A stretch of 64,000 nucleotides of DNA from an uncultured Eubacteriales bacterium (lineage in GTDB: Bacteria; Acidobacteriota; Aminicenantia; Aminicenantales; UBA8522). The notes beneath the pieces were generated by a model, which was not told where the DNA came from, searched no databases, and saw nothing but the letters and a program-made list of their open reading frames with translations. This document shows, piece by piece, positions 49,208 through 64,000 of this stretch (position 1 is the stretch's first letter; every line of letters starts with the position of its first letter). The position numbers were made by a program, and so were the translations under genes. Location of the stretch: NCBI GenBank assembly GCA_964580435.1, contig CAZOKP010000002.1, positions 2,919 through 66,918 on the forward strand. The letters are read 5' to 3'.

Positions 49208-49990
49208 TTAAAAAGAGATGAGCGCTTTGACCATGGCCGAATAATCGACACCGCCCTGGTAGGGATAAAAGCCTGCCTCGCCTTTGATTTGGAACTTGGC
49301 GGAGACGTCGATAATGGCTCCGAGAGCCATCCCGAAGAGGCTTTTTCCCCGGAGATCTTTTTTCTCTTCTCCGCTGAGAGTCTGGATCGTCTCTTTCATG
49401 GTAAACGTCCCCCAGAGATAATCCAAACTTGGATAAAGATAAGGGCTGAAACCCTTCCACCCTCTATAAATAAATTGCGGTCCTATGGAGGCGTGCATCC
49501 AAGTCGGTTTTCCTTCGACTGTGCCGGAAACGACCAGCCCGGGGACGTTCCATTTTTTATTGGCCCCCAGGCAAGCCAGAAATTGACCAACGATATCGAT
49601 GCCGAAATGCAGTCCGGAAAGGAGACGTCCGTTGAACTCGCCTCCCAAAACATAGCCGTTGATCCCTCCGCCTTCAAAGTCGATAGAAATAGGGAGCTTG
49701 TTGAACGCCACGTTATCGAACGCCGAGGAGGAATAGCCGAGGATGGCGGCCAGGGAGAAGCCCGGCCGGAATTCGATTTCCAGGACGAGGCTGCCGGTAG
49801 AAGACGTGAGTTTGGAGGTCGTTTCGTCATTAGACCAGCTAACGGTCCGGGAAAAATAATCAAAACGCAGTCCCGGCTTGAAATGGGCTGATGACGCGGT
49901 CTTGGGGCGAGTCTGAGCGATGGCTAGCGGGGCAGTGAATAGATAGAGGACGAGGAAAAAAACGGTCAGCCAGCGCGGACTTTTTTTCAT
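49208..49990 (-). CDS. Outer-membrane beta-barrel protein (small porin-like OMP)
   Basis: Signal peptide MKKSPRWLTVFFLVLYLFTAPLAIAQ. Alternating amphipathic strands end in aromatic ...LISF. GGAGG ribosome-binding site. Confidence 0.6.
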   Translation of the reverse strand: MKKSPRWLTVFFLVLYLFTAPLAIAQTRPKTASSAHFKPGLRFDYFSRTVSWSNDETTSKLTSSTGSLVLEIEFRPGFSLAAILGYSSSAFDNVAFNKLPISIDFEGGGINGYVLGGEFNGRLLSGLHFGIDIVGQFLACLGANKKWNVPGLVVSGTVEGKPTWMHASIGPQFIYRGWKGFSPYLYPSLDYLWGTFTMKETIQTLSGEEKKDLRGKSLFGMALGAIIDVSAKFQIKGEAGFYPYQGGVDYSAMVKALISF

Positions 49991-50000
49991 GAAAACCTCC

Positions 50001-50801
50001 CTATTCCTTTGGCTTGGGGGTGTTTTTTTCGATCTCACGCAGTCTCTCCTGGGCTTTCTTGGCATATTTGCTGGTCGGATAATCTGAGACGAGTTTCATA
50101 AAATAGGGGACGCTCTCGCTTGTTTTTCCCCATTTATAGTAGGAATCAGCCAAATAGAAATAGACCTCATCCATCTTGGCGTAGGTGGGATAATTAGTCA
50201 GGATCTCCGTTAATCGGCTCGTGGACGCCTTAAAAGCATAGCTCTTGTAATAGAATAGGCCGATCAGGAAATCTTGAGTGGACAACCTTTCCTCACATTC
50301 GTTGATTTTTTCCTGGGCCAGCTTAGCTTCTTCGCTCAGCGGATAGTTAGTGACGACCTTTTTGAATTCTGCGAGAGCCTGGTTCGTCTTGGTCTGGTCC
50401 CGGCCAGGCTTCAGGGCATTCTTGAAGGAAGCCATGCCGATCTGGTACTGAGCGTACGAAGCGGAGGGGCTGTAGGGATAAAGGGTGATAAACTCTCTGT
50501 ATTCTGAGGCAGCAAGAATCATGCTGCCTTCATCCTTTTTTTGAAAATAGGAATCGGCGATGGCCAGCTTGGCCCTCTGAGCATAGAAACTCTTGGGAAA
50601 AGAATCGATCACCTGACGAAAATAAAGAAGCGCTTTTTCAGGGTCTTTTTTCATATAGGACTGACCGGCTTTGAAAAGAGCTTCGTCCGAGGATGCGATC
50701 GCAGGGTCGATGGCGACCTTTTTTGCCTTACAGTTCCAGAGGGAGAGGCCGCAAAGAAAGGCGATAAGAACGACGAAGACGACTTTTTTCATAGCGCTCA
50801 T
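50001..50801 (-). CDS. bamD: Outer membrane protein assembly factor BamD-like TPR protein
   Basis: Signal peptide with Cys (LCGLSLWNC). TPR repeats FYAQRAKLAIADSYFQ and YPYSPSASYAQYQIGMASF are typical of BamD/YfiO. Confidence 0.75.
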   Translation of the reverse strand: MSAMKKVVFVVLIAFLCGLSLWNCKAKKVAIDPAIASSDEALFKAGQSYMKKDPEKALLYFRQVIDSFPKSFYAQRAKLAIADSYFQKKDEGSMILAASEYREFITLYPYSPSASYAQYQIGMASFKNALKPGRDQTKTNQALAEFKKVVTNYPLSEEAKLAQEKINECEERLSTQDFLIGLFYYKSYAFKASTSRLTEILTNYPTYAKMDEVYFYLADSYYKWGKTSESVPYFMKLVSDYPTSKYAKKAQERLREIEKNTPKPKE

Positions 50802-54403: not shown

Positions 54404-56422
54404 CTATCCTTCGAGCGATTCGGCCAGGAGCTGGGCGATGTCCTTAACCGCAATTTCGGTTTTTCCCCTGTCTTTTAGACCGTCCTTGAGCATATTCAAG
54501 CAGAACGGACAAGACGTTGCGGCGACCTTTGCCCCGGAGTGGATGACCTCATCCGTCCTCAGATGATTAATGCGCTGGCCCAGGCTCTCCTCGGTCCACA
54601 TCAGCCCTCCTCCGGCCCCGCAGCAGAAGCTGTGCTCGCGGCTTCGTCCGAGCTCGATGAATTTTTCCGGAGAAAGCCGCGACAGAATGTCCCGGGGCTC
54701 TTCGATAATACGATTATGCCGGCCAAGATAGCAGGAATCGTGATAGGTCAGGCTGCCGGCCAGATTCGCTTTGATGGGGAGCCGACCCTGTTTGACCAAT
54801 CGGTCGAGGAAGACGATGTGGGGCACGACTTCGATCTTGGCCAGCGTGGCTCGGTCGGTTTTAGACAACGAAGAGAGAAGACCGAGAAGCCGGGGGTATT
54901 CGTTCTTGAAGGTGTTATACCCGTGCGGGCAGAAGGTGATGATTCTTTTGACGTTGTATTTGAGGAAAAGGCTCAAATTTTCGCCGGCCAGCGTCTGGAA
55001 AAGGTATTCCTGGCCCAGGCGCCGGGCTGAATCGCCGCAGCATTTCTCTTCTGTCCCCAGGATGGCAAAATCGACCCCCGATTTTTTAAGCAGAGAGACC
55101 ATCGCCGCCGCAATTTTGGTGCCCTCCTCGTCATAGGAACCGGCACATCCCACCCAAAGGAGGTACTCCGCCGATTTCCGGTCAGCCATCAAGGGAACCT
55201 CAAGAGAAGCCGCCCAGTCCGCTCTCTTGGCGAACCCGATCCCCCAGGGGTTGGCGTTTGTTTCCATATTGCGGAAAAAGGCATTCAACTCCTGCGGGAA
55301 CTTGCTCTGCATCAAGACTTCGCTCCGGCGGATGCCGACGATCTTGCGGATATGCTCGATTTCAACCGGGCAGACATGCTGACAGGATCCGCAGGTCGTG
55401 CACGTCCAGATTTCTCCTTCGCTGTAAACACCGGGAAGAAGGGAGGGCAGGTCTTCCCGTTTGCCTTTTAGCAGTTTTACTTTCTCGCCGAGGAGGTGCC
55501 GTTCAAGGTTGAAAACGATCATCTTCGGCGAAAGCGGCTTGCCGCTGAGGAAGGCGGGACAGGCATCCTGGCAACGGCCGCATTCCATGCAGGCGAATGC
55601 GTCCAGGAGGTCCTTCCAGGAGAGGTCGCTCGCTTTTTCGACTCCAAAAACTTCAGACTTCTCGATATCCAGCGGCTGGATTTCTCCGCTCGGCCGCTCG
55701 GACCGGAAGAATACGTTCAGGGGCCCTGTGAACATGTGCAGGTACTTGGAGTGGGGAACATAGACGATGAACCCGAAGACCAGCAGAATGTGGAGCCACC
55801 AGGAGAGGCGGAAATGGGCGGCGATGACGTCCGGGCTCAAGCCCAAGCTCTGGACGCTGTCGGCCAGATAATTTCCCAAGAAGGCAAGGCGGGCGCTTTC
55901 GGGATGCCTGGCGATGGCGAAAGCTTCAAAGTAAAGATAGCTCAGGGTGACGGCGATGATGAAAAAATAGATCAACCCGGAATCGAGCAGAGTTGTCTTA
56001 TAGGCCTTCGGTCTGACGATGAACCGGCGGACGATGAAGAAGAGAATCCCGGCAAGAACAAGAAGTGCGAAGACGTCCACGATCAGAGAGAAAAAGAGTC
56101 CGACCCCGGTCTGCCCGAAGAGATAGAACTTGTTGACGTAACCTTCCAGGGTATGGTTGACCGTCATGGTGTCAAACGTCAGGGCGCCGTAGAAAATGAA
56201 AACATGCGCGAGTCCGGTAAAGATGCGCTCGTTTTTTAAGGTGCATTTCTGGAGGAGGACCTTAGACAAGGTGTCTCCGACCCTTCGGGCCAGGCCGGAG
56301 AAGCGCATCTCCGGGTTGCCTCTACGGATGATCCGGTAGCGGAGGTAGATCGGAAAAGCAAAACCCAGAAAAGTCGCGAGAATGATGAGAGAAAAAACAA
56401 CCTTTTCCCACGCTTGCAGCAT
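54404..56422 (-). CDS. Fused HdrE/HdrD-like (DsrMK/HmeCD-like) membrane oxidoreductase: N-terminal polytopic heme-b-type domain, two 4Fe-4S ferredoxin motifs, two Cys-rich CCG domains
   Basis: Five to six TM helices with conserved His residues. CMECGRCQDACP and CTTCGSCQHVCP ferredoxin motifs. CCGDSARR and FCCGAGGG CCG motifs. Confidence 0.8.
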   Translation of the reverse strand: MLQAWEKVVFSLIILATFLGFAFPIYLRYRIIRRGNPEMRFSGLARRVGDTLSKVLLQKCTLKNERIFTGLAHVFIFYGALTFDTMTVNHTLEGYVNKFYLFGQTGVGLFFSLIVDVFALLVLAGILFFIVRRFIVRPKAYKTTLLDSGLIYFFIIAVTLSYLYFEAFAIARHPESARLAFLGNYLADSVQSLGLSPDVIAAHFRLSWWLHILLVFGFIVYVPHSKYLHMFTGPLNVFFRSERPSGEIQPLDIEKSEVFGVEKASDLSWKDLLDAFACMECGRCQDACPAFLSGKPLSPKMIVFNLERHLLGEKVKLLKGKREDLPSLLPGVYSEGEIWTCTTCGSCQHVCPVEIEHIRKIVGIRRSEVLMQSKFPQELNAFFRNMETNANPWGIGFAKRADWAASLEVPLMADRKSAEYLLWVGCAGSYDEEGTKIAAAMVSLLKKSGVDFAILGTEEKCCGDSARRLGQEYLFQTLAGENLSLFLKYNVKRIITFCPHGYNTFKNEYPRLLGLLSSLSKTDRATLAKIEVVPHIVFLDRLVKQGRLPIKANLAGSLTYHDSCYLGRHNRIIEEPRDILSRLSPEKFIELGRSREHSFCCGAGGGLMWTEESLGQRINHLRTDEVIHSGAKVAATSCPFCLNMLKDGLKDRGKTEIAVKDIAQLLAESLEG

Positions 56423-56435
56423 TTTCTCTCCTTTC

Positions 56436-57260
56436 TTAAAAGAGAATGGCCATCCCCCAGATCAATTTCGAGTGGGATCGCCTGTTTCCCAGGGGGCTTG
56501 TTTCCGTGTCCGCCCAGATGCCTGTTCCCGCAGCGAGCTGGAGCCATTCCGTCAGGTTGAACCGGAAAATCAAGTCGGCGATCAATGTCTGTCCTATATT
56601 GAACACCGTGTCAGACTGGACAATAACCTGCAAGCTCGCCGTGACGTTTTTCCCCAATTGAGCGCCGGCGCGCAATCCGTATTCCTGCCTGACCTTGCCC
56701 CCGGAGAGGTCGAGATGGGTTCGCTGGTTGGTATGATGGAAGAACCAGGCAAAAGGCTCAATCACATAGTCCTTGCCTTGAAAAGGTACGCTGAACCCGA
56801 TGTAGTTCCGGTTCGTGTAATAGGGCTTTCCATTCAGATAGCTGGTGTGGTCGGCGTCATGGTCAGAATCATGCCCGAGAATCAGCGTGAGATGCTCGAA
56901 GATCTCCTGATGAAACGAGAAGTGCCAGTCGAATTTTGTCCTTTGACCACCGTCGTCGTGCGTAAGAAGCTGGAAATCTAAGGCGGTGGTGCGAGTCAAG
57001 AATATGAAGGTGCGAAACCCGAAGTTCCAGCGGTCTTCCGGCCCGGTGAGGTCATTATAGCTGGGGTACGTGGACGGGAGCTGCAACTGGCCGAAGAATT
57101 CGCCATGGACCAGGACTTTTTTGTCCGGACCAAGCGGAAATTTCTGTTCGAAAGGGCGGTAAAGAAAGAGCTCATAGCCGGGAAGTGCCGGCGGCAGAAG
57201 CGCCGCGGCCAGCCAGAAGAATAGTAAACCTATCGATTTAATAAAATATTTAGAATTCAT
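56436..57260 (-). CDS. His-rich outer-membrane beta-barrel protein (hypothetical)
   Basis: Signal peptide MNSKYFIKSIGLLFFWLAAALLP. HDSDHDADH and FFHH clusters. C-terminal ...MAILF. Confidence 0.55.
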   Translation of the reverse strand: MNSKYFIKSIGLLFFWLAAALLPPALPGYELFLYRPFEQKFPLGPDKKVLVHGEFFGQLQLPSTYPSYNDLTGPEDRWNFGFRTFIFLTRTTALDFQLLTHDDGGQRTKFDWHFSFHQEIFEHLTLILGHDSDHDADHTSYLNGKPYYTNRNYIGFSVPFQGKDYVIEPFAWFFHHTNQRTHLDLSGGKVRQEYGLRAGAQLGKNVTASLQVIVQSDTVFNIGQTLIADLIFRFNLTEWLQLAAGTGIWADTETSPLGNRRSHSKLIWGMAILF

Positions 57261-60108
57261 AGGAGAAACCTAAGCGGAAGACCCGCGGTGACTCGATCTC
57301 CGTGGCGTTACGCAACGGAAACTCCGGTCCTGTCCATTCGGACTCCTTGGCCGCAGAGGCAGAGTTGAAGATGTTGTATCCGTCCAGGAATATTTTTCCT
57401 CTCGCCTTGCCCAGGTCGAAGACTTTTTCTAGGCGCACGTCCACGGTCATGTTGAATTCATAGCGGGTCTTTCCGCGGGCAGAGGCTTGAACATAGAAAG
57501 GACCCTGGTTCATGCCGGTGACGATGATCTTCCGGGCAAAGGGCTGGCCGTCGTAATAGGTGATTAACGTTGAGAGCCGGAAGCCAAGGGGAACAGCGAC
57601 GCCCGCGCCAAGCCTGGCCGTGTAGGCCCGGTCAAAACGCAACCGGCCGCGAGCGAAGATTGAGGCGTTCGGGTTATCGTACAGAGTCCCTACGACGCCG
57701 TCGTCATTTTCCCATTCTGTGTTTCCCGGGCTTGTCGTCCCGGTGGCTTCGGTGGCTGTGGCGGAAAAAAAGAGGACCAGGCTCGGGCTGAATTTCTTGG
57801 CCAGGGTCAAGTCAAGGCCGCGATAGTATGAAACTCTTGCGCCGGCCTCGGGATTAGTCAGGAGGAAAAAATCCTGGCCCAACGTGTCCTTCCATTGGTT
57901 GTAAACGGTCAAATAGAGTTCGTCCCCGGTCCCCGGGATATAATCATCGCCGAGATCGAAGATCTCGACCGGGTCGTAGGAGGATAGGGGAACGCCAACG
58001 TTTATGGTTTCGACAAGATTTTCCGTTTTCCGATAAAAACCGGCCAGCGATAAGTAAAAATTTTTTGGGAACACCCGCGATAGGACCGCTGAAAGCTCGT
58101 CGGTGTACGGCCTTTTGATGTTCGGGTCGATGCGGGCATAATGAGGTCCTTCTCTCCGCAAGAGCCTGCCGGCCTCGCCCTCCTGGAACCTGAGGTCATG
58201 ATTGGCATCCGTCCAGTGATAAACCAGCCCGGCCAAGGCATAGGGATTTCCGTAGGCCAAGTACCAGAGGGGGAGCTCGAAATAATAGCGCGAGGCCGAC
58301 ACTCTGAGCCAGGTATTTTTGCGTGAGGTGAAGGGGAAGGCAAAGACCAGGCGGGGAGAAAGATTCTGCCAGGTGACGCATCCGCCCCGGCTCTGGAAAA
58401 TCGGACTTGGCGGGTCCTGGGTTGGCCCAGAATGGCCGGACGATGTCCAGCCCCGCGTGGAAATGAAATTCAGGCCCAGAGATAGGGAGGCGAGATTAGA
58501 AAAGGTCAGAGTCTCCTGAACAAAAAAATTGACATTGAGGGCCTTTTCTCCGTGTTGGAGCGGAGTATTGTACCGGACGATCTCCAAGGGGCGTTCTCCA
58601 AGAAAATGAAGATGGTAGTTATCGAGAACGGCAAGTTCAGAAGATGAGGAGGAATACTTGAGAGAAAATCCGTAATCCAGGCGATGATGAAAACGGGACA
58701 GGTTTCCCAGCAGGGCCTGCCCCAGGCCTTCCAAAACTAGAGCGGTCCGGCCGTCCTGGCCCGCTGCTGCTGCGGCTCCGGAAGGTATTTCTGTAAAGAT
58801 TTCAAGCCCGTGCGGTTCGGTCGCTCCTTCTTGAAAATCAGAATGGAAATTTCCCCGTCTGAACCCGGCGCCGACCTCGAGCGTGTGGTCCGGCCTAATC
58901 TTCGTCCTCCAGGTGACTTGAAGGACATGGAAAAAGTTTTTTCTGTCCAGGGTCGCGGAATAAGGAACCAGCCTGTCCGCTCCATAAGAGAACTGGCGGA
59001 CGACTTGTCCGGTCCAGAACATCTGGAGCGAACTTCGGGACATGAGGTATGTCAGGTTGACCAATCCCGAGTAGACAGAGGCGTTATCATCCGGAGAGAA
59101 TTGGGCGATATCACGCGAAAGGCCGAGGCCGGTGAAGGAGGCGAAGAAAAGAAGCCGGCTGGAAAGAATTGGCCCAGAAACCTGAGCGTTATAGTTTTGG
59201 AAGGAATTCAGGCGGTTGGTTTCATATAGCCCTTCCGTCTCCAGGGCTGGAGTGATGTTGGAGGTCGTCATCGCCCGGGTTGTTAAAAAAGCCGTGAGGG
59301 CGCCGTGAAACTGCGAGGTCCCCTGCTTGGGGATGAGGTCGAAATATCCGCCGGGCGCGATGTAAGGGATGGGATGCTGGCCGTTGCTGTGCCGCGTGTA
59401 GTCCAGGCTGTAGAGGTCAGGATAATAAAGCGGGGCGCCGGCGAGGTAGGGGTCGGTGACATCCATCCCGTTAATGAGATAGCTCGTCTGGGTCCAGGAG
59501 ACGCTGCCTCGGGAGCTGAAAAGCGCGGGCTCGCTGGCCCATATCCCCCCGATATCGAATCGATTTGTCGTCGCCGAAAAATCCTGGTTTTGAATAAGCG
59601 ACCAGACGTTGTTGCCCGAGGGGAAAGCCTCGATTTGATTCTCGTTGATGATGGTTTGGGCCGAATCGTTGGTGAGATCGGCCCAAAGCGGTTGGAGGGA
59701 AGGAGAGTCGGACTTCTCTGCCCCCCTAAGACTGATTCTGACATAGAGAATCCGGCCGGGCTCGATAACGACTCTTGGCGCTTTATAAGATAGATATCCT
59801 TCCCGTTCGAAAAGCACGGCGAGTACCCCGGGAGGGATCCCGTTGAGTTCGAAAAACCCATTCTTATCCGAATAGGCAGATTCCTGATAAAGAGCCTCTT
59901 GGGACCTTAGAGTGACCCGCACGTTCTCAAGAGGTTTCTTATATTGGTCCCTGACATGTCCTAGAAGAATTCCAGAATTTTCAGCGAAAAGAAATGGACG
60001 TCCGGATAAGAAATGGCCAAAGAATAGCAAAAAAAACAACGGGAGATTAAGAATTTTCTTCCGCGCGTTGTCCCTCAGCTTTCTTATCTCCCGCAGGTAA
60101 GTCTCCAT
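57250..60108 (-). CDS. Large outer-membrane beta-barrel protein with N-terminal carboxypeptidase-regulatory-like domain (plug-less TonB-dependent-receptor-like / Oar-like)
   Basis: VRVTLRSQEALYQESAYSDKNGFFELNGIPPGVLAVLFEREGY is a CarboxypepD_reg fold. Followed by ~800 aa of beta-strand repeats ending RLGFSYEF. Start is uncertain; the ORF track extends to 60138. Confidence 0.7.
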   Translation of the reverse strand: METYLREIRKLRDNARKKILNLPLFFLLFFGHFLSGRPFLFAENSGILLGHVRDQYKKPLENVRVTLRSQEALYQESAYSDKNGFFELNGIPPGVLAVLFEREGYLSYKAPRVVIEPGRILYVRISLRGAEKSDSPSLQPLWADLTNDSAQTIINENQIEAFPSGNNVWSLIQNQDFSATTNRFDIGGIWASEPALFSSRGSVSWTQTSYLINGMDVTDPYLAGAPLYYPDLYSLDYTRHSNGQHPIPYIAPGGYFDLIPKQGTSQFHGALTAFLTTRAMTTSNITPALETEGLYETNRLNSFQNYNAQVSGPILSSRLLFFASFTGLGLSRDIAQFSPDDNASVYSGLVNLTYLMSRSSLQMFWTGQVVRQFSYGADRLVPYSATLDRKNFFHVLQVTWRTKIRPDHTLEVGAGFRRGNFHSDFQEGATEPHGLEIFTEIPSGAAAAAGQDGRTALVLEGLGQALLGNLSRFHHRLDYGFSLKYSSSSSELAVLDNYHLHFLGERPLEIVRYNTPLQHGEKALNVNFFVQETLTFSNLASLSLGLNFISTRGWTSSGHSGPTQDPPSPIFQSRGGCVTWQNLSPRLVFAFPFTSRKNTWLRVSASRYYFELPLWYLAYGNPYALAGLVYHWTDANHDLRFQEGEAGRLLRREGPHYARIDPNIKRPYTDELSAVLSRVFPKNFYLSLAGFYRKTENLVETINVGVPLSSYDPVEIFDLGDDYIPGTGDELYLTVYNQWKDTLGQDFFLLTNPEAGARVSYYRGLDLTLAKKFSPSLVLFFSATATEATGTTSPGNTEWENDDGVVGTLYDNPNASIFARGRLRFDRAYTARLGAGVAVPLGFRLSTLITYYDGQPFARKIIVTGMNQGPFYVQASARGKTRYEFNMTVDVRLEKVFDLGKARGKIFLDGYNIFNSASAAKESEWTGPEFPLRNATEIESPRVFRLGFSYEF

Positions 60109-60260
60109 ATATTTCCCATTTTTGACTGGCGCTGTCAAGAATTTCTATGACGAAAGCGGCATCGCGTTTCGGCGGCTTTCAATATTTAAGAAAAGAAATT
60201 ATAATGAGCCCTTGCCAAGTAGTGAAAAAAAGGCATGCCTTTCTTGTGAAGGAGGGAGCC

Positions 60261-61661
60261 ATGCTGGAGAGACGAGACCTAGTTATTATCGGAGGAGGGC
60301 CGGGCGGATATGTGGCTGCCCTGAGAGCAGCTCAGCTCAAGAAAAAAGTCACAGTCATCGAGGAGGACCGGATCGGCGGAACATGCATGAACTACGGCTG
60401 CATCCCCACGAAGTTCCTTCTTCACCAGAGCCAGATATTCTCCCAGTTGAAGCGAAGCCAGGGGATCGAAGGATGTTCAGAGACCGCGCGCCTGAACTGG
60501 AAGTGGGTTCAAGAGGAAAAAAAGAACGTGGTGGACAGACTGGTCAAGGGGACGGAATTCCTCCTCAGGAGAAACGGTGTCGAGGTCCTCAACGGAAGAG
60601 GCGCGCTCAAAGGAAATAGGGAAGTCCTTTTCTATGGCCCCAACGGAGAAAAACCACTTGAAGCGGAGAACATCATCCTGGCCATGGGAAGCCGCTCTTC
60701 CGATCTGCCCTTCTTGAAGCCCAATGGAGAAGAGGTCATAACTCACCGCGAAGCCTTGGACCTCGAGGCGGTCCCCCGGACGATGATCGTCGTCGGCGCC
60801 GGAGCGATCGGGCTCGAAATCGGCGCGATTTTTTCGCGGGCGGGAACAGAAGTGACCGTGTTGGAAATCATGCCGGCCATTCTTCCAGGAATGGACAAAC
60901 AGATGGCTGTGCGTCTGGAACGAATGCTCAAAAAGCAGGGGCTCAAGATCTTCACAGAAATGCGTATTGAGGAAGCTATGCTGGAAAGGGGAAAGGTCAC
61001 GCTCAAAGGTACGAATCTTAAGACCAAATCGGGTTTTGAGCACAGCGCCGAGAAAGTCCTACTGGCCACCGGCAGGAAGCCTCGTTCGGAGATCCTGGCG
61101 AAGGATTTCGGAAGTCTGCTCGGTTCGGCGGGGTTCGTCGAGGTCAATTCCCGCCTGGAGTCGAGAATGCCCGGAATCTATGCCATCGGAGACCTCATCG
61201 GCGGAAAACTTCTGGCCCACAAAGCCGAACATGAAGGCATTATCGCGGCTGAGAATGCCGCCGGGCTTTTCAAAGAGATGGATTATCTGGCCCTGCCCAT
61301 GGCCGTATTCACCGAACCGGAGTTCGCCTCGGTGGGTTTGACGGAGGAGGAAGCAAAGGCTGGGGGAATTCAAACCCAGATCGGCCTCTTTTCTCTCCAG
61401 GCTAATGGAAGGGCCCTAACCCTGGAAAGCCCGGAGGGGATGGTCAAGCTTATTGCTTCAACGGATGACCGCGTCATCGGCGCCCACATCTTGGCTCCTC
61501 AGGCCAGCGAGCTTATCGCCGAAATGACTCTGGCCGTCAAACACGGGCTGACGGTCAAGGATGTCTCCTCCACGATTCATGTCCATCCCACTTTGTCTGA
61601 AGCCATAATGGAGGCGGCGTTGAAGGTCAAAGGGATAGCGCTTCATGCCTTGAACGATTAG
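60261..61661 (+). CDS. lpdA: Dihydrolipoyl dehydrogenase
   Basis: IIGGGPGGYVAA FAD motif, GGTCMNYGCIPTK redox disulfide and a C-terminal HAHPTLSE-like motif are present. Start has a GAAGGAGGGA ribosome-binding site. Confidence 0.9.
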   Translation: MLERRDLVIIGGGPGGYVAALRAAQLKKKVTVIEEDRIGGTCMNYGCIPTKFLLHQSQIFSQLKRSQGIEGCSETARLNWKWVQEEKKNVVDRLVKGTEFLLRRNGVEVLNGRGALKGNREVLFYGPNGEKPLEAENIILAMGSRSSDLPFLKPNGEEVITHREALDLEAVPRTMIVVGAGAIGLEIGAIFSRAGTEVTVLEIMPAILPGMDKQMAVRLERMLKKQGLKIFTEMRIEEAMLERGKVTLKGTNLKTKSGFEHSAEKVLLATGRKPRSEILAKDFGSLLGSAGFVEVNSRLESRMPGIYAIGDLIGGKLLAHKAEHEGIIAAENAAGLFKEMDYLALPMAVFTEPEFASVGLTEEEAKAGGIQTQIGLFSLQANGRALTLESPEGMVKLIASTDDRVIGAHILAPQASELIAEMTLAVKHGLTVKDVSSTIHVHPTLSEAIMEAALKVKGIALHALND

Positions 61662-61673
61662 CCGGGAGCACGC

Positions 61674-63272
61674 CTACCGAATATAGCCAAGGGCCCTGAG
61701 CATCTCCTTGGTTTTTTCGTCGATCTTTATTTCTCCTTTTCCGCTTAGCGCTTCCCGGGAATAGGCTTCAAGCTTCAGTTTAAGCGGCAAGAGATCTTCC
61801 GAGACCTCCTGGCCTGAGCTGATATCGGTCATTTCCTGCGGGTCTTTTTTGAGGTTGAAAACCTCGAGCTTGTTATCCTCGGGCGTGAAGATGAGATGCC
61901 AGGGGAAGCTGATGATTCCGAAACGGTCTCTCACAGATTCGGGTTTGTATGTTTCTTCAAAAAGGGTCGCCTTTTCATCTGTTTTGAGCTGGGAGAGGTC
62001 TCTTCCTTGGAAAGAGGAAAAAGGATTTAAACCCATCATTTTTATGATGGTGGGAGCGATGTCCAGCAGATTAACGAATTCTTCGCGGACAATCCCTTTT
62101 TTTGGCTGGCTAGGATTCCAGATTATGAGCGGGACTTTCATATAGAGGTCATAAAGAAAATGAATATGGCCGAAGTGGGGATCAGACTCATAGTGATATT
62201 CGCCCAAACCTTCGCCGTGGTCCCCGACGAGAAGGATGGCCGTCTTGTCAAAGAGCCGGAGCTCACGGAGTTTTTCCCAGAGCTTGCCGATTGCCCCGTC
62301 CATATACTCAACCTCTCTCCCGTAGCATACTCGGGCCGCTTGCCTAGAAAGCCAAGGCTTTCCTTGAAAGGTGAATTGGACCTGCTTCTGCTTGGAGTTA
62401 TTGGTGATGTCGATAAAACTCTTGCCCTTGAAGAAGATATTTTCAGGGCGGAGGAAAAACCAGCCGCTGACGAAATTCGTCTTCAGCTCCTTTTGATCAG
62501 GGACGGGAGAAAATTCCAGCCTGTCCAGGAAGCCCAGATAATGGTTCGCGTTACGGTCGAACTCGTTCTTGAACTCGATCCGGACCCGGTTTTTTCCAGG
62601 CTTCAAGTCGAGCGTGACCTGGTTGAGAGTGTATTTTTGTAGGCTTGTCTCGTAGATCAACCGGTCGTTCAGATAGAGCTTAAAGTCCAAAGGAACATAG
62701 GGAGGGGCATAGGGATCATGGGGATCTGAATAATGAACCCACAAGAAGAAGGGTCGGTCCTTGTTTTTCTCCAGCCAGGAAAAGACTCTTTCATTGACCT
62801 CTCCGGCCGAAAGATACCAGCGGTCCCGGGGAAAGCTGTCTTGGTAGAGGTCAAAACCCTGGTCAAGGCCAAATTGCGCTTCAACGATGCCCAGAGAGAC
62901 AAAAGCAGCCGTGGCGAAGCCTTTTTGCCGAAACAGGTTGACGAACGAGGGCATCGACCTTTTGGCGATGACCTTCTGGCCGTTGTTATAGCATTTGATT
63001 TTATGAGGCCGTTCGGAAAAGAAGATGCTGCCATGCGAAGGCAGCGTCATCGGGATCAGGCTGTATGCGTTCTTGAAGAGGGTCCCCTCCCGAGCCAGAA
63101 AATCGATATTGGGAGTGGAGGCGTTGGACGGATTATAGGCGCTGATATAGTCGGCACGCTGCGTATCGAGCGTGACCAGGATAAAGTTTTCCGATTTTCT
63201 ACTTCTCTGACACCCGAGGAAAAAAAGAACAAAGACAAATCCCAGGAGGACTTTGGAGAATCGCTTTTTCAT
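61674..63272 (-). CDS. Sulfatase-family (alkaline phosphatase superfamily) lipoprotein
   Basis: VTLDTQRADYISAY and GDHGEGLGEYHYESDPHFGH are sulfatase motifs. Lipoprotein signal MKKRFSKVLLGFVFVLFFLGC. An alternative upstream ATG at 63380 would leave only 36 bp to nuoA. Confidence 0.8.
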   Translation of the reverse strand: MKKRFSKVLLGFVFVLFFLGCQRSRKSENFILVTLDTQRADYISAYNPSNASTPNIDFLAREGTLFKNAYSLIPMTLPSHGSIFFSERPHKIKCYNNGQKVIAKRSMPSFVNLFRQKGFATAAFVSLGIVEAQFGLDQGFDLYQDSFPRDRWYLSAGEVNERVFSWLEKNKDRPFFLWVHYSDPHDPYAPPYVPLDFKLYLNDRLIYETSLQKYTLNQVTLDLKPGKNRVRIEFKNEFDRNANHYLGFLDRLEFSPVPDQKELKTNFVSGWFFLRPENIFFKGKSFIDITNNSKQKQVQFTFQGKPWLSRQAARVCYGREVEYMDGAIGKLWEKLRELRLFDKTAILLVGDHGEGLGEYHYESDPHFGHIHFLYDLYMKVPLIIWNPSQPKKGIVREEFVNLLDIAPTIIKMMGLNPFSSFQGRDLSQLKTDEKATLFEETYKPESVRDRFGIISFPWHLIFTPEDNKLEVFNLKKDPQEMTDISSGQEVSEDLLPLKLKLEAYSREALSGKGEIKIDEKTKEMLRALGYIR

Positions 63273-63416
63273 TTTTTCTTGGACGGAAAGCGAGACACGG
63301 CCTGCAGCCGCCTGCTTGTGACAGCCTATTATGAGAAATATTAGAAAAATTGTCAAAATGTTTGCAAAATTCGATCTCATTTTATAAAATATTTGCCGTT
63401 ATTCGGAAAAAACGAC

Positions 63417-63761
63417 GTGGTCGAAACCTTTTTGGTCTTTGCGGTCTTCGGTTTGCTGGGTCTTGTCCTGATTTTCATGAATAGGATCCTGGGGCCTTCT
63501 CGGCCAAACCCGACCAAAGACAAACCCTTTGAGTGCGGCAGCCCTTACCTGAGGGAGGACATCAACCCTTTCCCGATCAAGTTCTATCTGGTCGCCTTCA
63601 TTTTCCTGCTTTTTGATATCGAGGTCGTCTTCTTTTTCCCCTGGGCCCTTATTTTTAGGGAGATGATTACGAGCGCCCTCATCATCATGGCGGCCTATAT
63701 TTTTGTGTTGGTAATCGGGTTTGTCTACGCCTGGAAGAAGGGCGCTTTCGAGTGGGAATGA
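63417..63761 (+). CDS. nuoA: NADH-quinone oxidoreductase subunit A
   Basis: Three TM helices and PFECGSPYL motif. Probable GTG start; the ORF track begins at 63393. Confidence 0.85.
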
Positions 63762-63774
63762 AAAAAGGTCAGCC

Positions 63775-64000
63775 ATGTCGGAGATGAAGAAAAAGCACCG
63801 GCCGCCGGCCCAGTTCATCACGACCCAGTTCAATACCATGCTCGGCTGGGCCAGGAAATATTCCTTGTTCCAATATCCTTTTATCACGGCGTGCTGCGGC
63901 ATGGAGTACATGTCGGCCGCCTGCGCCCATTTTGACCTCGACCGTTTCGGCGCGGGTTGGACCCGCTTTTCTCCGCGGCAGGCGGATATGCTTCTTGTGG
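63775..64000 (+). CDS. nuoB: NADH-quinone oxidoreductase subunit B (3-prime partial, runs off the window)
   Basis: Translation gives [14 protein letters not shown]...[26 protein letters not shown], the NuoB Fe-S N2 region. AAAAGG ribosome-binding site. Confidence 0.85.

Follow-up and report, generated by a model that had tools for sequence, protein, structure and literature searches.

An outer-membrane transporter-barrel gene pair next to a gene for an EMO/EtfD-family membrane oxidoreductase in an uncultured Aminicenantia bacterium

The window analysed here is a stretch of 64,000 nucleotides (nt) from the assembly of an uncultured bacterium that GTDB places in the class Aminicenantia of the Acidobacteriota (GCA_964580435.1, contig CAZOKP010000002.1, positions 2,919 to 66,918 of the forward strand). 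The names that relatives carry likewise put the organism in Aminicenantes (Acidobacteriota). In the last part of the window, three minus-strand genes form a compact cluster that encodes a large outer-membrane protein with the modelled fold of a TonB-dependent transporter, a small outer-membrane beta-barrel of 274 amino acids (aa), and a 672-aa inner-membrane protein which, judged by its sequence, is a member of the EMO/EtfD family. With moderate confidence, we read the cluster as a pair of outer-membrane uptake proteins whose genes are transcribed together with that of an EMO-type enzyme; the latter would link the menaquinone pool to a donor in the cytoplasm, which is probably the electron-transferring flavoprotein (ETF). 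A preliminary description of this DNA had instead seen the three proteins as a trans-envelope redox system; this does not hold for the window, where no periplasmic or outer-membrane redox protein is encoded, and the genes are separable in relatives.

Three lines of evidence identify the 672-aa protein, namely, its domains, its closest match of known structure, and its ligands. Pfam places Nitrate_red_gam at residues 117-241 (25.1 bits, cut-off 22.9), a 4Fe-4S dicluster domain (Fer4_8) at residues of about 270-355, and two CCG stretches (99 bits). The protein is a single chain with an N-terminal NarI-like haem-b domain of five transmembrane (5-TM) segments, a two-[4Fe-4S] domain and two CCG motifs, and the preliminary description had recognised this fusion correctly. 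It was also right that this is not an ordinary GlpC/LutA homologue, because the NarI-like haem-b domain is present and the protein is hence not soluble. Among PDB sequences, one very strong match was obtained with HMMER, i.e., chain A of 9OJN (E 1.6e-108, query residues 7-671). This entry, titled 'iron-sulfur-binding reductase', is the cryo-EM structure of EtfD from M. smegmatis (Ms), which wires cytoplasmic ETF to menaquinone via two unusual CCG-domain clusters, two cubane clusters, and haem b (PMC13083937). The EMO of Syntrophus aciditrophicus (Sa) has the same three-domain design with three haems, and EMO and HdrDE are widely distributed sister groups (bioRxiv 10.64898/2026.08.18.745454). 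In the solved EMOs, the distal clusters are variable, one Cys short, and act as non-catalytic electron relays, and the characterised EMO/EtfD members form the link from beta-oxidation to quinone (PMC13083937; bioRxiv 10.64898/2026.08.18.745454). The fused architecture is thus not undescribed, as had been supposed, and the window's protein adds one more member to a family that is already known and has solved structures.

The published EMO ligands were transferred to the 672-aa protein via the HMMER alignment to 9OJN. The haem ligands correspond to H73 and H229 (Ms His78/His241; Sa His87/His251), and a third, family-wide His to H211 (Ms H223; Sa H233). The cysteines of the two cubane clusters (D3/D4) are C278, C281, C284, C288, C341, C344, C347, and C351, while the proximal non-cubane cluster (D2) is represented by C564, C600, C601, C638, and C641 together with H500. 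At the distal cluster site, four cysteines are found (C426, C461, C462, and C498), and the fifth position is occupied by G501. No variation is seen at H73/H229, H211, all eight cubane Cys, and nine of the ten CCG Cys among 41 relatives that belong to the window's type, and the mapped ligands are likewise invariant in 10 members of a second Aminicenantes subtype, which is encoded behind an inserted gene module (see below). The likeness to EtfD/EMO therefore covers the whole design in one polypeptide (5-TM NarI-like haem-b domain, two-cubane ferredoxin domain, two CCG/non-cubane motifs) as well as the ligands, i.e., the haem His pair, the third His, the cubane Cys and the proximal ligands are kept and the distal Cys set is incomplete. 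The window's protein differs in that it has no counterpart of the disordered tail of roughly 265 residues at the C-terminus of the mycobacterial form, retains the CC pair in its first CCG motif (CT in mycobacteria), and ends this motif with CPHG instead of CPHC; moreover, its gene follows two outer-membrane protein genes and does not lie beside etfAB. A further difference is found in the membrane domain, where four extra histidines (H90, H173, H203, and H224) are invariant or nearly so in the 41 relatives of the window's subtype and are replaced by Q, I, L, and Y/F, respectively, in the inserted-module subtype. These residues may provide for more than one haem, as in the S. aciditrophicus EMO and HdrDE rather than in the mono-haem mycobacterial form.

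Sequence alignment also bears on the chemistry of the CCG module, for which the preliminary description had suggested a dithiol as possible redox partner. In HdrB (5ODC_B), C78-N-G-C81 aligns to C498-P-H-G501, and the second CCG motif is complete. The bridging catalytic Cys81 of HdrB is therefore a Gly in the 672-aa protein, which argues against disulfide chemistry and weakens the idea of a dithiol such as lipoamide as partner, and the protein lacks the two complete CX(n)CCX(n)CXXC motifs (10 Cys, with Cys81 and Cys234) that would mark a heterodisulfide reductase. In EMO enzymes, the CCG clusters relay electrons of ETF to menaquinone, and by analogy ETF is probably the electron donor of the window's EMO as well. 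With HdrDE, DsrMK, HmcEF, and TmcBC, the protein shares the combination of a NarI-like cytochrome b with 2x[4Fe-4S] and 2xCCG, and it has weak similarity to NCBIfam models, far below the respective cut-offs in each case (TfrB, 154 vs 385 bits; DsrK, 63 vs 400; HmcF, 60 vs 750; TmcB, 73 vs 735); GlpC (61 vs 278) and LdhH are also sub-threshold. It is set apart from HdrDE/DsrMK as one fused chain without an equivalent of HdrB Cys81, and no methanogenic or sulfate-reducing gene context is present at the window.

The large protein was described as a 950-aa protein with CarboxypepD_reg and a beta-barrel; the domain composition stands, and the length is approximate (952 or 962 aa, depending on the start codon). 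CarboxypepD_reg (PF13620, residues 59-137) is the sole domain found by sequence with Pfam, and neither Plug (PF07715) nor TonB_dep_Rec (PF00593) gives a match even at E 10. The AlphaFold2 model (pLDDT 81.5, pTM 0.83) shows a 22-strand barrel with an N-terminal plug fold, the plug region (residues of about 140-290) being modelled partly with low confidence. Its best fold matches in the PDB (Foldseek) are all transporters, namely, FusA (1.9e-26), YddB, SusC, RagA, PqqU, and FecA, with matches that span 850-1080 alignment columns. According to this model, the large protein has the fold of a TonB-dependent transporter. Among its relatives, some go by the name TonB-dependent receptor or have PF00593, PF07715, or PF25183, and the C-terminal Phe is invariant among relatives; a TonB box was not identified by eye in the large protein. 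SusC-like and Oar-like transporters resemble it in the order of CarboxypepD_reg followed by a large barrel and in the C-terminal Phe; the difference is that no SusD-like lipoprotein partner is present, and that the gene of a 12-strand barrel overlaps the 3' end of the transporter gene.

This small barrel agrees with its earlier description as a 274-aa His-rich outer-membrane protein. It has a signal peptide, seen as a signal helix in the AlphaFold2 model (pLDDT 87.7), followed by 12 strands and a C-terminal Phe, and it carries GHDSDHDADH at residues 129-138 and WFFHH at residues 172-176. Invariant in the alignment of the family are H101, D102, R107, T108, D111, W112, H113, G129, H130, D131, S132, H134, D135, N150, R151, N152, E168, N178, D184, S186, and E193, while H175 and H176 are kept in at least 90% of the sequences. 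The invariant His/Ser/Asn/Asp cluster sits at the extracellular ends of strands 3-7. Residue orientation was derived from the strand-by-strand hydrophobicity parity of the sequence, not from model coordinates; by this parity, H130/S132/H134 and N150/N152 fall at the extracellular rim on that side of strands 5 and 6 which faces the lipid, and the other side is a charged network (R107, K109, D111, H113, D131, D133, D135, R151, E193, R197, D229, and R233). From its sequence, the polar cluster could be either a hydrolase-like catalytic site on the outer rim or a His/Asp metal site.

The barrel does not fall into a named family. Across 43 aligned members, no Pfam or NCBIfam match was found even at E up to 10, and the family profile run against PDB sequences (HMMER) returned only noise, without OMPLA at E up to 10; the barrel is not a member of the OMPLA sequence family (PF02253). 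In Foldseek searches with the model, PcoB ranks first and OMPLA about 20th, and since 12-strand barrels all score alike, the modelled fold is a generic 12-strand outer-membrane barrel. OMPLA (PldA) and PcoB/CopB resemble it in strand number and size; in addition, the H-x-S and Asn on adjacent strands may have their counterpart in OMPLA, and the PcoB/CopB metal channels share the richness in His and Asp. The HDSNG oxyanion and Ca-site residues of OMPLA are, however, not kept, and both systems differ from the window barrel by the lack of detectable sequence-family membership and by the restriction of its family to Aminicenantes. A large protein collection contains 333 relatives, none informatively named, and phmmer against 1.84 billion cluster representatives found one full-length cluster at the 50%-identity level, plus fragments, which indicates that the family is confined to one clade; consistent with this, all 69 species-representative genome loci with the barrel belong to metagenome-assembled genomes (MAGs) of the Aminicenantes type.

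The open reading frame (ORF) list and the sequence confirm that the three genes are tightly packed, with an overlap of 11 nt and a gap of 13 nt. At the first junction, the last codons of the transporter gene overlap the start of the barrel gene (ATGAATTCTAA), and the transporter is thereby translationally coupled to the small barrel. At the second, the stop codon TAA of the barrel gene is followed by GAAAGGAGAGAAA and then by the ATG of the fused gene; AGGAG within this gap makes a good ribosome-binding site for the EMO gene, whose end lies 33 nt from a convergent threonine aldolase gene. A promoter-like match is situated upstream of the transporter gene, in the divergent intergenic region common to this gene and lpdA; the match counts for little, since such sites are as frequent in this region as in shuffled sequence. 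The translation start of the transporter is more probably the ATG at 60108 (952 aa) than the TTG (962 aa), as a database entry of 952 aa, with 100% identity over the shared region, fits this ATG. Chance does not account for the packing: these spacings are found again in dozens of species, with small barrels that share only 44-82% identity with that of the window.

To compare gene orders, reference proteins were mapped by tblastn onto 72 related loci. Between the divergent lpdA and the convergent threonine aldolase gene, one chromosomal slot with three kinds of content emerged, namely, I) the direct type (47 loci, including the window's kind), in which the order is (transporter)-barrel-EMO and EMO comes straight after the barrel; II) the inserted-module type (18 loci), in which a stretch of 162-272 nt separates the barrel from six genes (about 7 kb), which precede the second EMO subtype; and III) the mod-operon type (3 loci), in which a monocistronic barrel gene is divergent from modA-modB-modC-moeA-moaA, without EMO, lpdA, or transporter nearby. 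The arrangement of the three genes is conserved in relatives: the barrel-EMO gap is 10-19 nt in 35 of the 37 measurable loci, and the transporter-barrel overlap is exactly 11 nt in all 16 loci in which it could be measured. Co-transcription of barrel and EMO, which we infer from these spacings, would then be conserved within the direct type. Of the 54 evaluable loci, 15 lack the transporter. In two loci, transporter and barrel are kept with only an EMO fragment before the threonine aldolase gene, so the outer-membrane pair is maintained without EMO. The transporter-barrel pair is the tightest unit, and the outer-membrane genes and EMO are not obligate partners.

Two of the six inserted genes encode multihaem cytochromes, one being a 6-7-haem cytochrome c with a C-terminal anchor and the other a NapC-like protein with six haems; the remaining four code for a Fer4_11 FeS protein, NrfD, a molybdopterin oxidoreductase of 758 aa with a Tat signal, and a PD40-like propeller of 439 aa without a Pfam match. 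Behind them lies the second EMO subtype, which is 38-41% identical to the EMO of the window and gives the stronger match to 9OJN (8.7e-121). In a neighbour-joining tree of the barrel, the direct and the inserted-module types interleave, so that the tree favours neither as the ancestral form. The leader of the mod operon carries a molybdenum cofactor (Moco)/tungsten riboswitch (RF01055, 65-74 bits) on the modA strand in the three loci of the mod-operon type. A molybdenum riboswitch was rejected as a regulator of the barrel, as it occurs only on that strand of these loci and is not found in the window. The coordinates of the features in the window and in the related loci are collected in Table 1.

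Table 1. Positions of the features discussed, in the window (coordinates without prefix) and in related loci (prefix L).
Feature	Position	Strand	Size, basis or remark
EMO/EtfD-type membrane oxidoreductase gene	54404..56422	minus	672 aa; Pfam domains, 9OJN alignment, invariant ligands
Intergenic spacer with Shine-Dalgarno sequence of the EMO gene	56423..56435	minus	13 nt (GAAAGGAGAGAAA); sequence read directly
Gene of the clade-restricted 12-stranded outer-membrane beta-barrel	56436..57260	minus	274 aa; AlphaFold2, alignment of relatives
Gene of the outer-membrane protein with modelled TonB-dependent-transporter fold	57250..60138	minus	962 aa from TTG; PF13620, AlphaFold2, Foldseek
Sigma-70-like promoter match	60198..60226	minus	TTCACT-17-TATAAT, 10/12; consensus scan only
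Divergent dihydrolipoyl dehydrogenase gene (lpdA)	60147..61661	plus	TIGR01350; neighbouring context
Inserted module	L027:11036-19793 (CP070825.1)		same module in L014, L020, L025, L030, L033, L044, L051, L057, L071
Inserted module, partial	L022, L023, L038, L055, L058, L072		
Mod-operon type loci	L040:5034-10819, L035:1-5341, L047:3-4267		
EMO remnant only, transporter and barrel kept	L019:3723-4097, L060:11028-11177		fragment before threonine aldolase gene

Under the favoured reading, the cluster would comprise two units. The CarboxypepD_reg-type TonB-dependent transporter and the translationally coupled, Aminicenantes-specific barrel would act as an uptake pair, whereas the EMO would take electrons on the cytoplasmic side, which in characterised homologues come from reduced ETF. 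These electrons would pass from the distal and proximal non-cubane clusters to the two cubane [4Fe-4S] clusters, then to haem b and on to menaquinone, and the enzyme may also run in reverse, as in Syntrophus. For lack of a periplasmic electron carrier in the window, EMO and the outer-membrane pair form no electron conduit, and any coupling between them would be at the level of co-expression or metabolism. Several observations weigh against this interpretation. The window's subtype carries the extra invariant histidines H90, H173, H203, and H224; no etfAB was found among the window genes checked (about 33.7-64 kb), the first half of the window being unannotated; and the 10-19 nt spacer is kept across at least 35 species and has the look of a selected operon, so that a metabolic link between the outer-membrane pair and EMO is possible.

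A rival explanation, which we regard as unlikely, is that the cluster is an operon for the scavenging of lipids or other hydrophobic substrates. Here, the barrel would be an OMPLA/PagL-like acyl hydrolase that frees fatty acids at the outer leaflet, the transporter would help to import them, and beta-oxidation would deliver electrons via ETF and EMO to menaquinone. H130-x-S132 on strand 5 and N150/N152 on strand 6 topologically match H142-x-S144 and N156 of OMPLA, and hydrophobicity parity would make these residues lipid-facing at the outer rim; moreover, the operon spacing is conserved, and the role of characterised EMO/EtfD members between beta-oxidation and quinone would suit such a pathway. 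When the barrel family was aligned by hhalign with a manually entered sequence of E. coli OMPLA, HDS fell on HDS and NRxY on NRxY with E 0.021, but at a probability of 2% only. The family profile found neither Pfam PLA1 nor OMPLA in the PDB, Foldseek does not favour OMPLA, the orientation of the residues comes from sequence parity instead of coordinates, and the barrel is also encoded beside modABC or upstream of the molybdoenzyme module. Another rival explanation is import of a metal or metal chelate (Fe/haem, Zn, Cu, Mo/W) by the outer-membrane pair, co-regulated with metal-rich respiratory enzymes, in which case the His/Asp cluster of the barrel would bind metal or act as a selectivity filter, in the manner of PcoB/CopB. 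The invariant H/D-rich motifs of the family (GHDSDHDSDH, THDD, and FFHH), the highly charged lumen-parity residues, and the fact that metal chelates are the classical import of TonB-dependent transporters, to which the large protein is matched by fold, all point in this direction, as do the divergent operon of Moco riboswitch and modABC-moeA-moaA in three loci and the position of the barrel at the head of the molybdoenzyme and multihaem module in 18. Even so, import of metals is a distinctly unlikely explanation: the riboswitch lies on the modA strand and not on that of the barrel, the region upstream of the transporter in the window contains no Rfam family at gathering score and hence no metal-responsive element was found there, oxyanions such as molybdate are not bound by His/Asp clusters, and the fold searches in which PcoB comes first score 12-strand barrels alike.

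The trans-envelope redox system of the preliminary description, in which the CCG module would be partnered in the cytoplasm by a dithiol such as lipoamide (via LpdA), draws on the conserved operon-like packing and on the divergent lpdA, which is conserved in most loci. The idea is echoed in relatives, since in 18 loci the barrel and the EMO-like gene are separated by genes for periplasmic multihaem cytochromes, NrfD, an FeS protein, and a Tat-exported molybdoenzyme; it is not borne out in the window, where the missing periplasmic or outer-membrane redox protein largely refutes it. Neither the 12-strand barrel nor the plugged transporter has redox cofactor motifs, and a tblastn search of the window with the inserted-module proteins of the relatives found no cytochrome c homologue. 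Mtr-type porin-cytochrome conduits combine a barrel of about 20-26 strands with periplasmic and outer-membrane multihaem cytochromes c, instead of which the window has a 12-strand barrel and a plugged transporter. On the cytoplasmic side, the first CCG motif lacks the catalytic bridging Cys, and the clusters are non-catalytic relays in the solved EMOs. As for lpdA, its adjacency, once taken as a hint of a lipoamide partner, belongs to a class-wide synteny in which lpdA travels with a whole block (sulfatase, and nuo where the sequence reaches that far). Nothing specific speaks for lipoamide. Taken together, a dithiol-coupled trans-envelope system is very improbable.

A broader and more speculative view, to which we give little credence at present, is that the lpdA-threonine aldolase slot in Aminicenantia is a modular 'envelope respiration' cassette, with the outer-membrane pair at its head and an EMO-type quinone reductase at its end. 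If this were true, the window would represent a minimal version and the 18 inserted-module relatives a full version, the outer-membrane pair would acquire a substrate or cofactor needed by the EMO-centred chain, and the 274-aa barrel would found a new outer-membrane family whose members bear a catalytic or metal site at the outer rim.

In the literature on Aminicenantes, no description was found of the conserved transporter-barrel-EMO gene order or of the molybdoenzyme, multihaem cytochrome, and EMO cassette of the relatives. With the structures published in 2026, thousands of entries named 'Fe-S oxidoreductase / nitrate reductase gamma' or 'heterodisulfide reductase-related', in Aminicenantes and beyond, become readable as EMO/EtfD-type, menaquinone-feeding proteins. 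The presence of two EMO subtypes at one Aminicenantes locus, one with extra membrane histidines and one inside a molybdoenzyme/multihaem operon, bears on the respiration of these abundant, uncultured anaerobes. The barrel belongs to a well-defined outer-membrane family that is restricted to one clade and whose polar site is strongly conserved; wherever the transporter is present, barrel and transporter are translationally coupled, and no description of this pairing was found. Current understanding is not overturned by these findings.

The EMO locus is located in a respiratory neighbourhood that is syntenic across the class. The divergent gene is identified as lpdA by TIGR01350 (489 bits vs cut-off 409), and its position is kept in most related loci. 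As listed, its ORF comprises 504 aa from 60147, but both the alignments to relatives and the Rossmann motif start only at about residues 35-44; the listed ORF is therefore probably over-extended, with the start near 60258, which leaves a divergent promoter region of about 150 nt common to the transporter gene. A sulfatase gene adjoins lpdA in the window (61674-64000 region) and in many related loci. It is followed by the start of the complex I operon in the window (nuoA at 63393) and in the two related loci that extend as far as the nuo genes (L001:1-8451 and L003:1-4855). On the other side of the cluster, the 10 neighbouring window genes that were checked (about 33.7-54.4 kb) are mostly housekeeping genes, with one subtilase-like protease and one gene without a family match.

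Many of the GTDB species-representative MAGs with the locus (among L004-L066) bear the title 'uncultured Eubacteriales bacterium' or 'Clostridiales bacterium' in public records. The order of their genes (sulfatase-lpdA-barrel-EMO-threonine aldolase-PASTA) is that of Aminicenantes genomes, and these labels are therefore probably wrong. Lastly, a 285-aa protein without a Pfam match is encoded at 49208-50065 on the minus strand, directly downstream of a BamD/YfiO-like gene, a position that is kept in one related locus (L002). It starts with a signal-like segment, its C-terminus reads ...LISF, and it may represent a further, so far uncharacterised barrel of the outer membrane.

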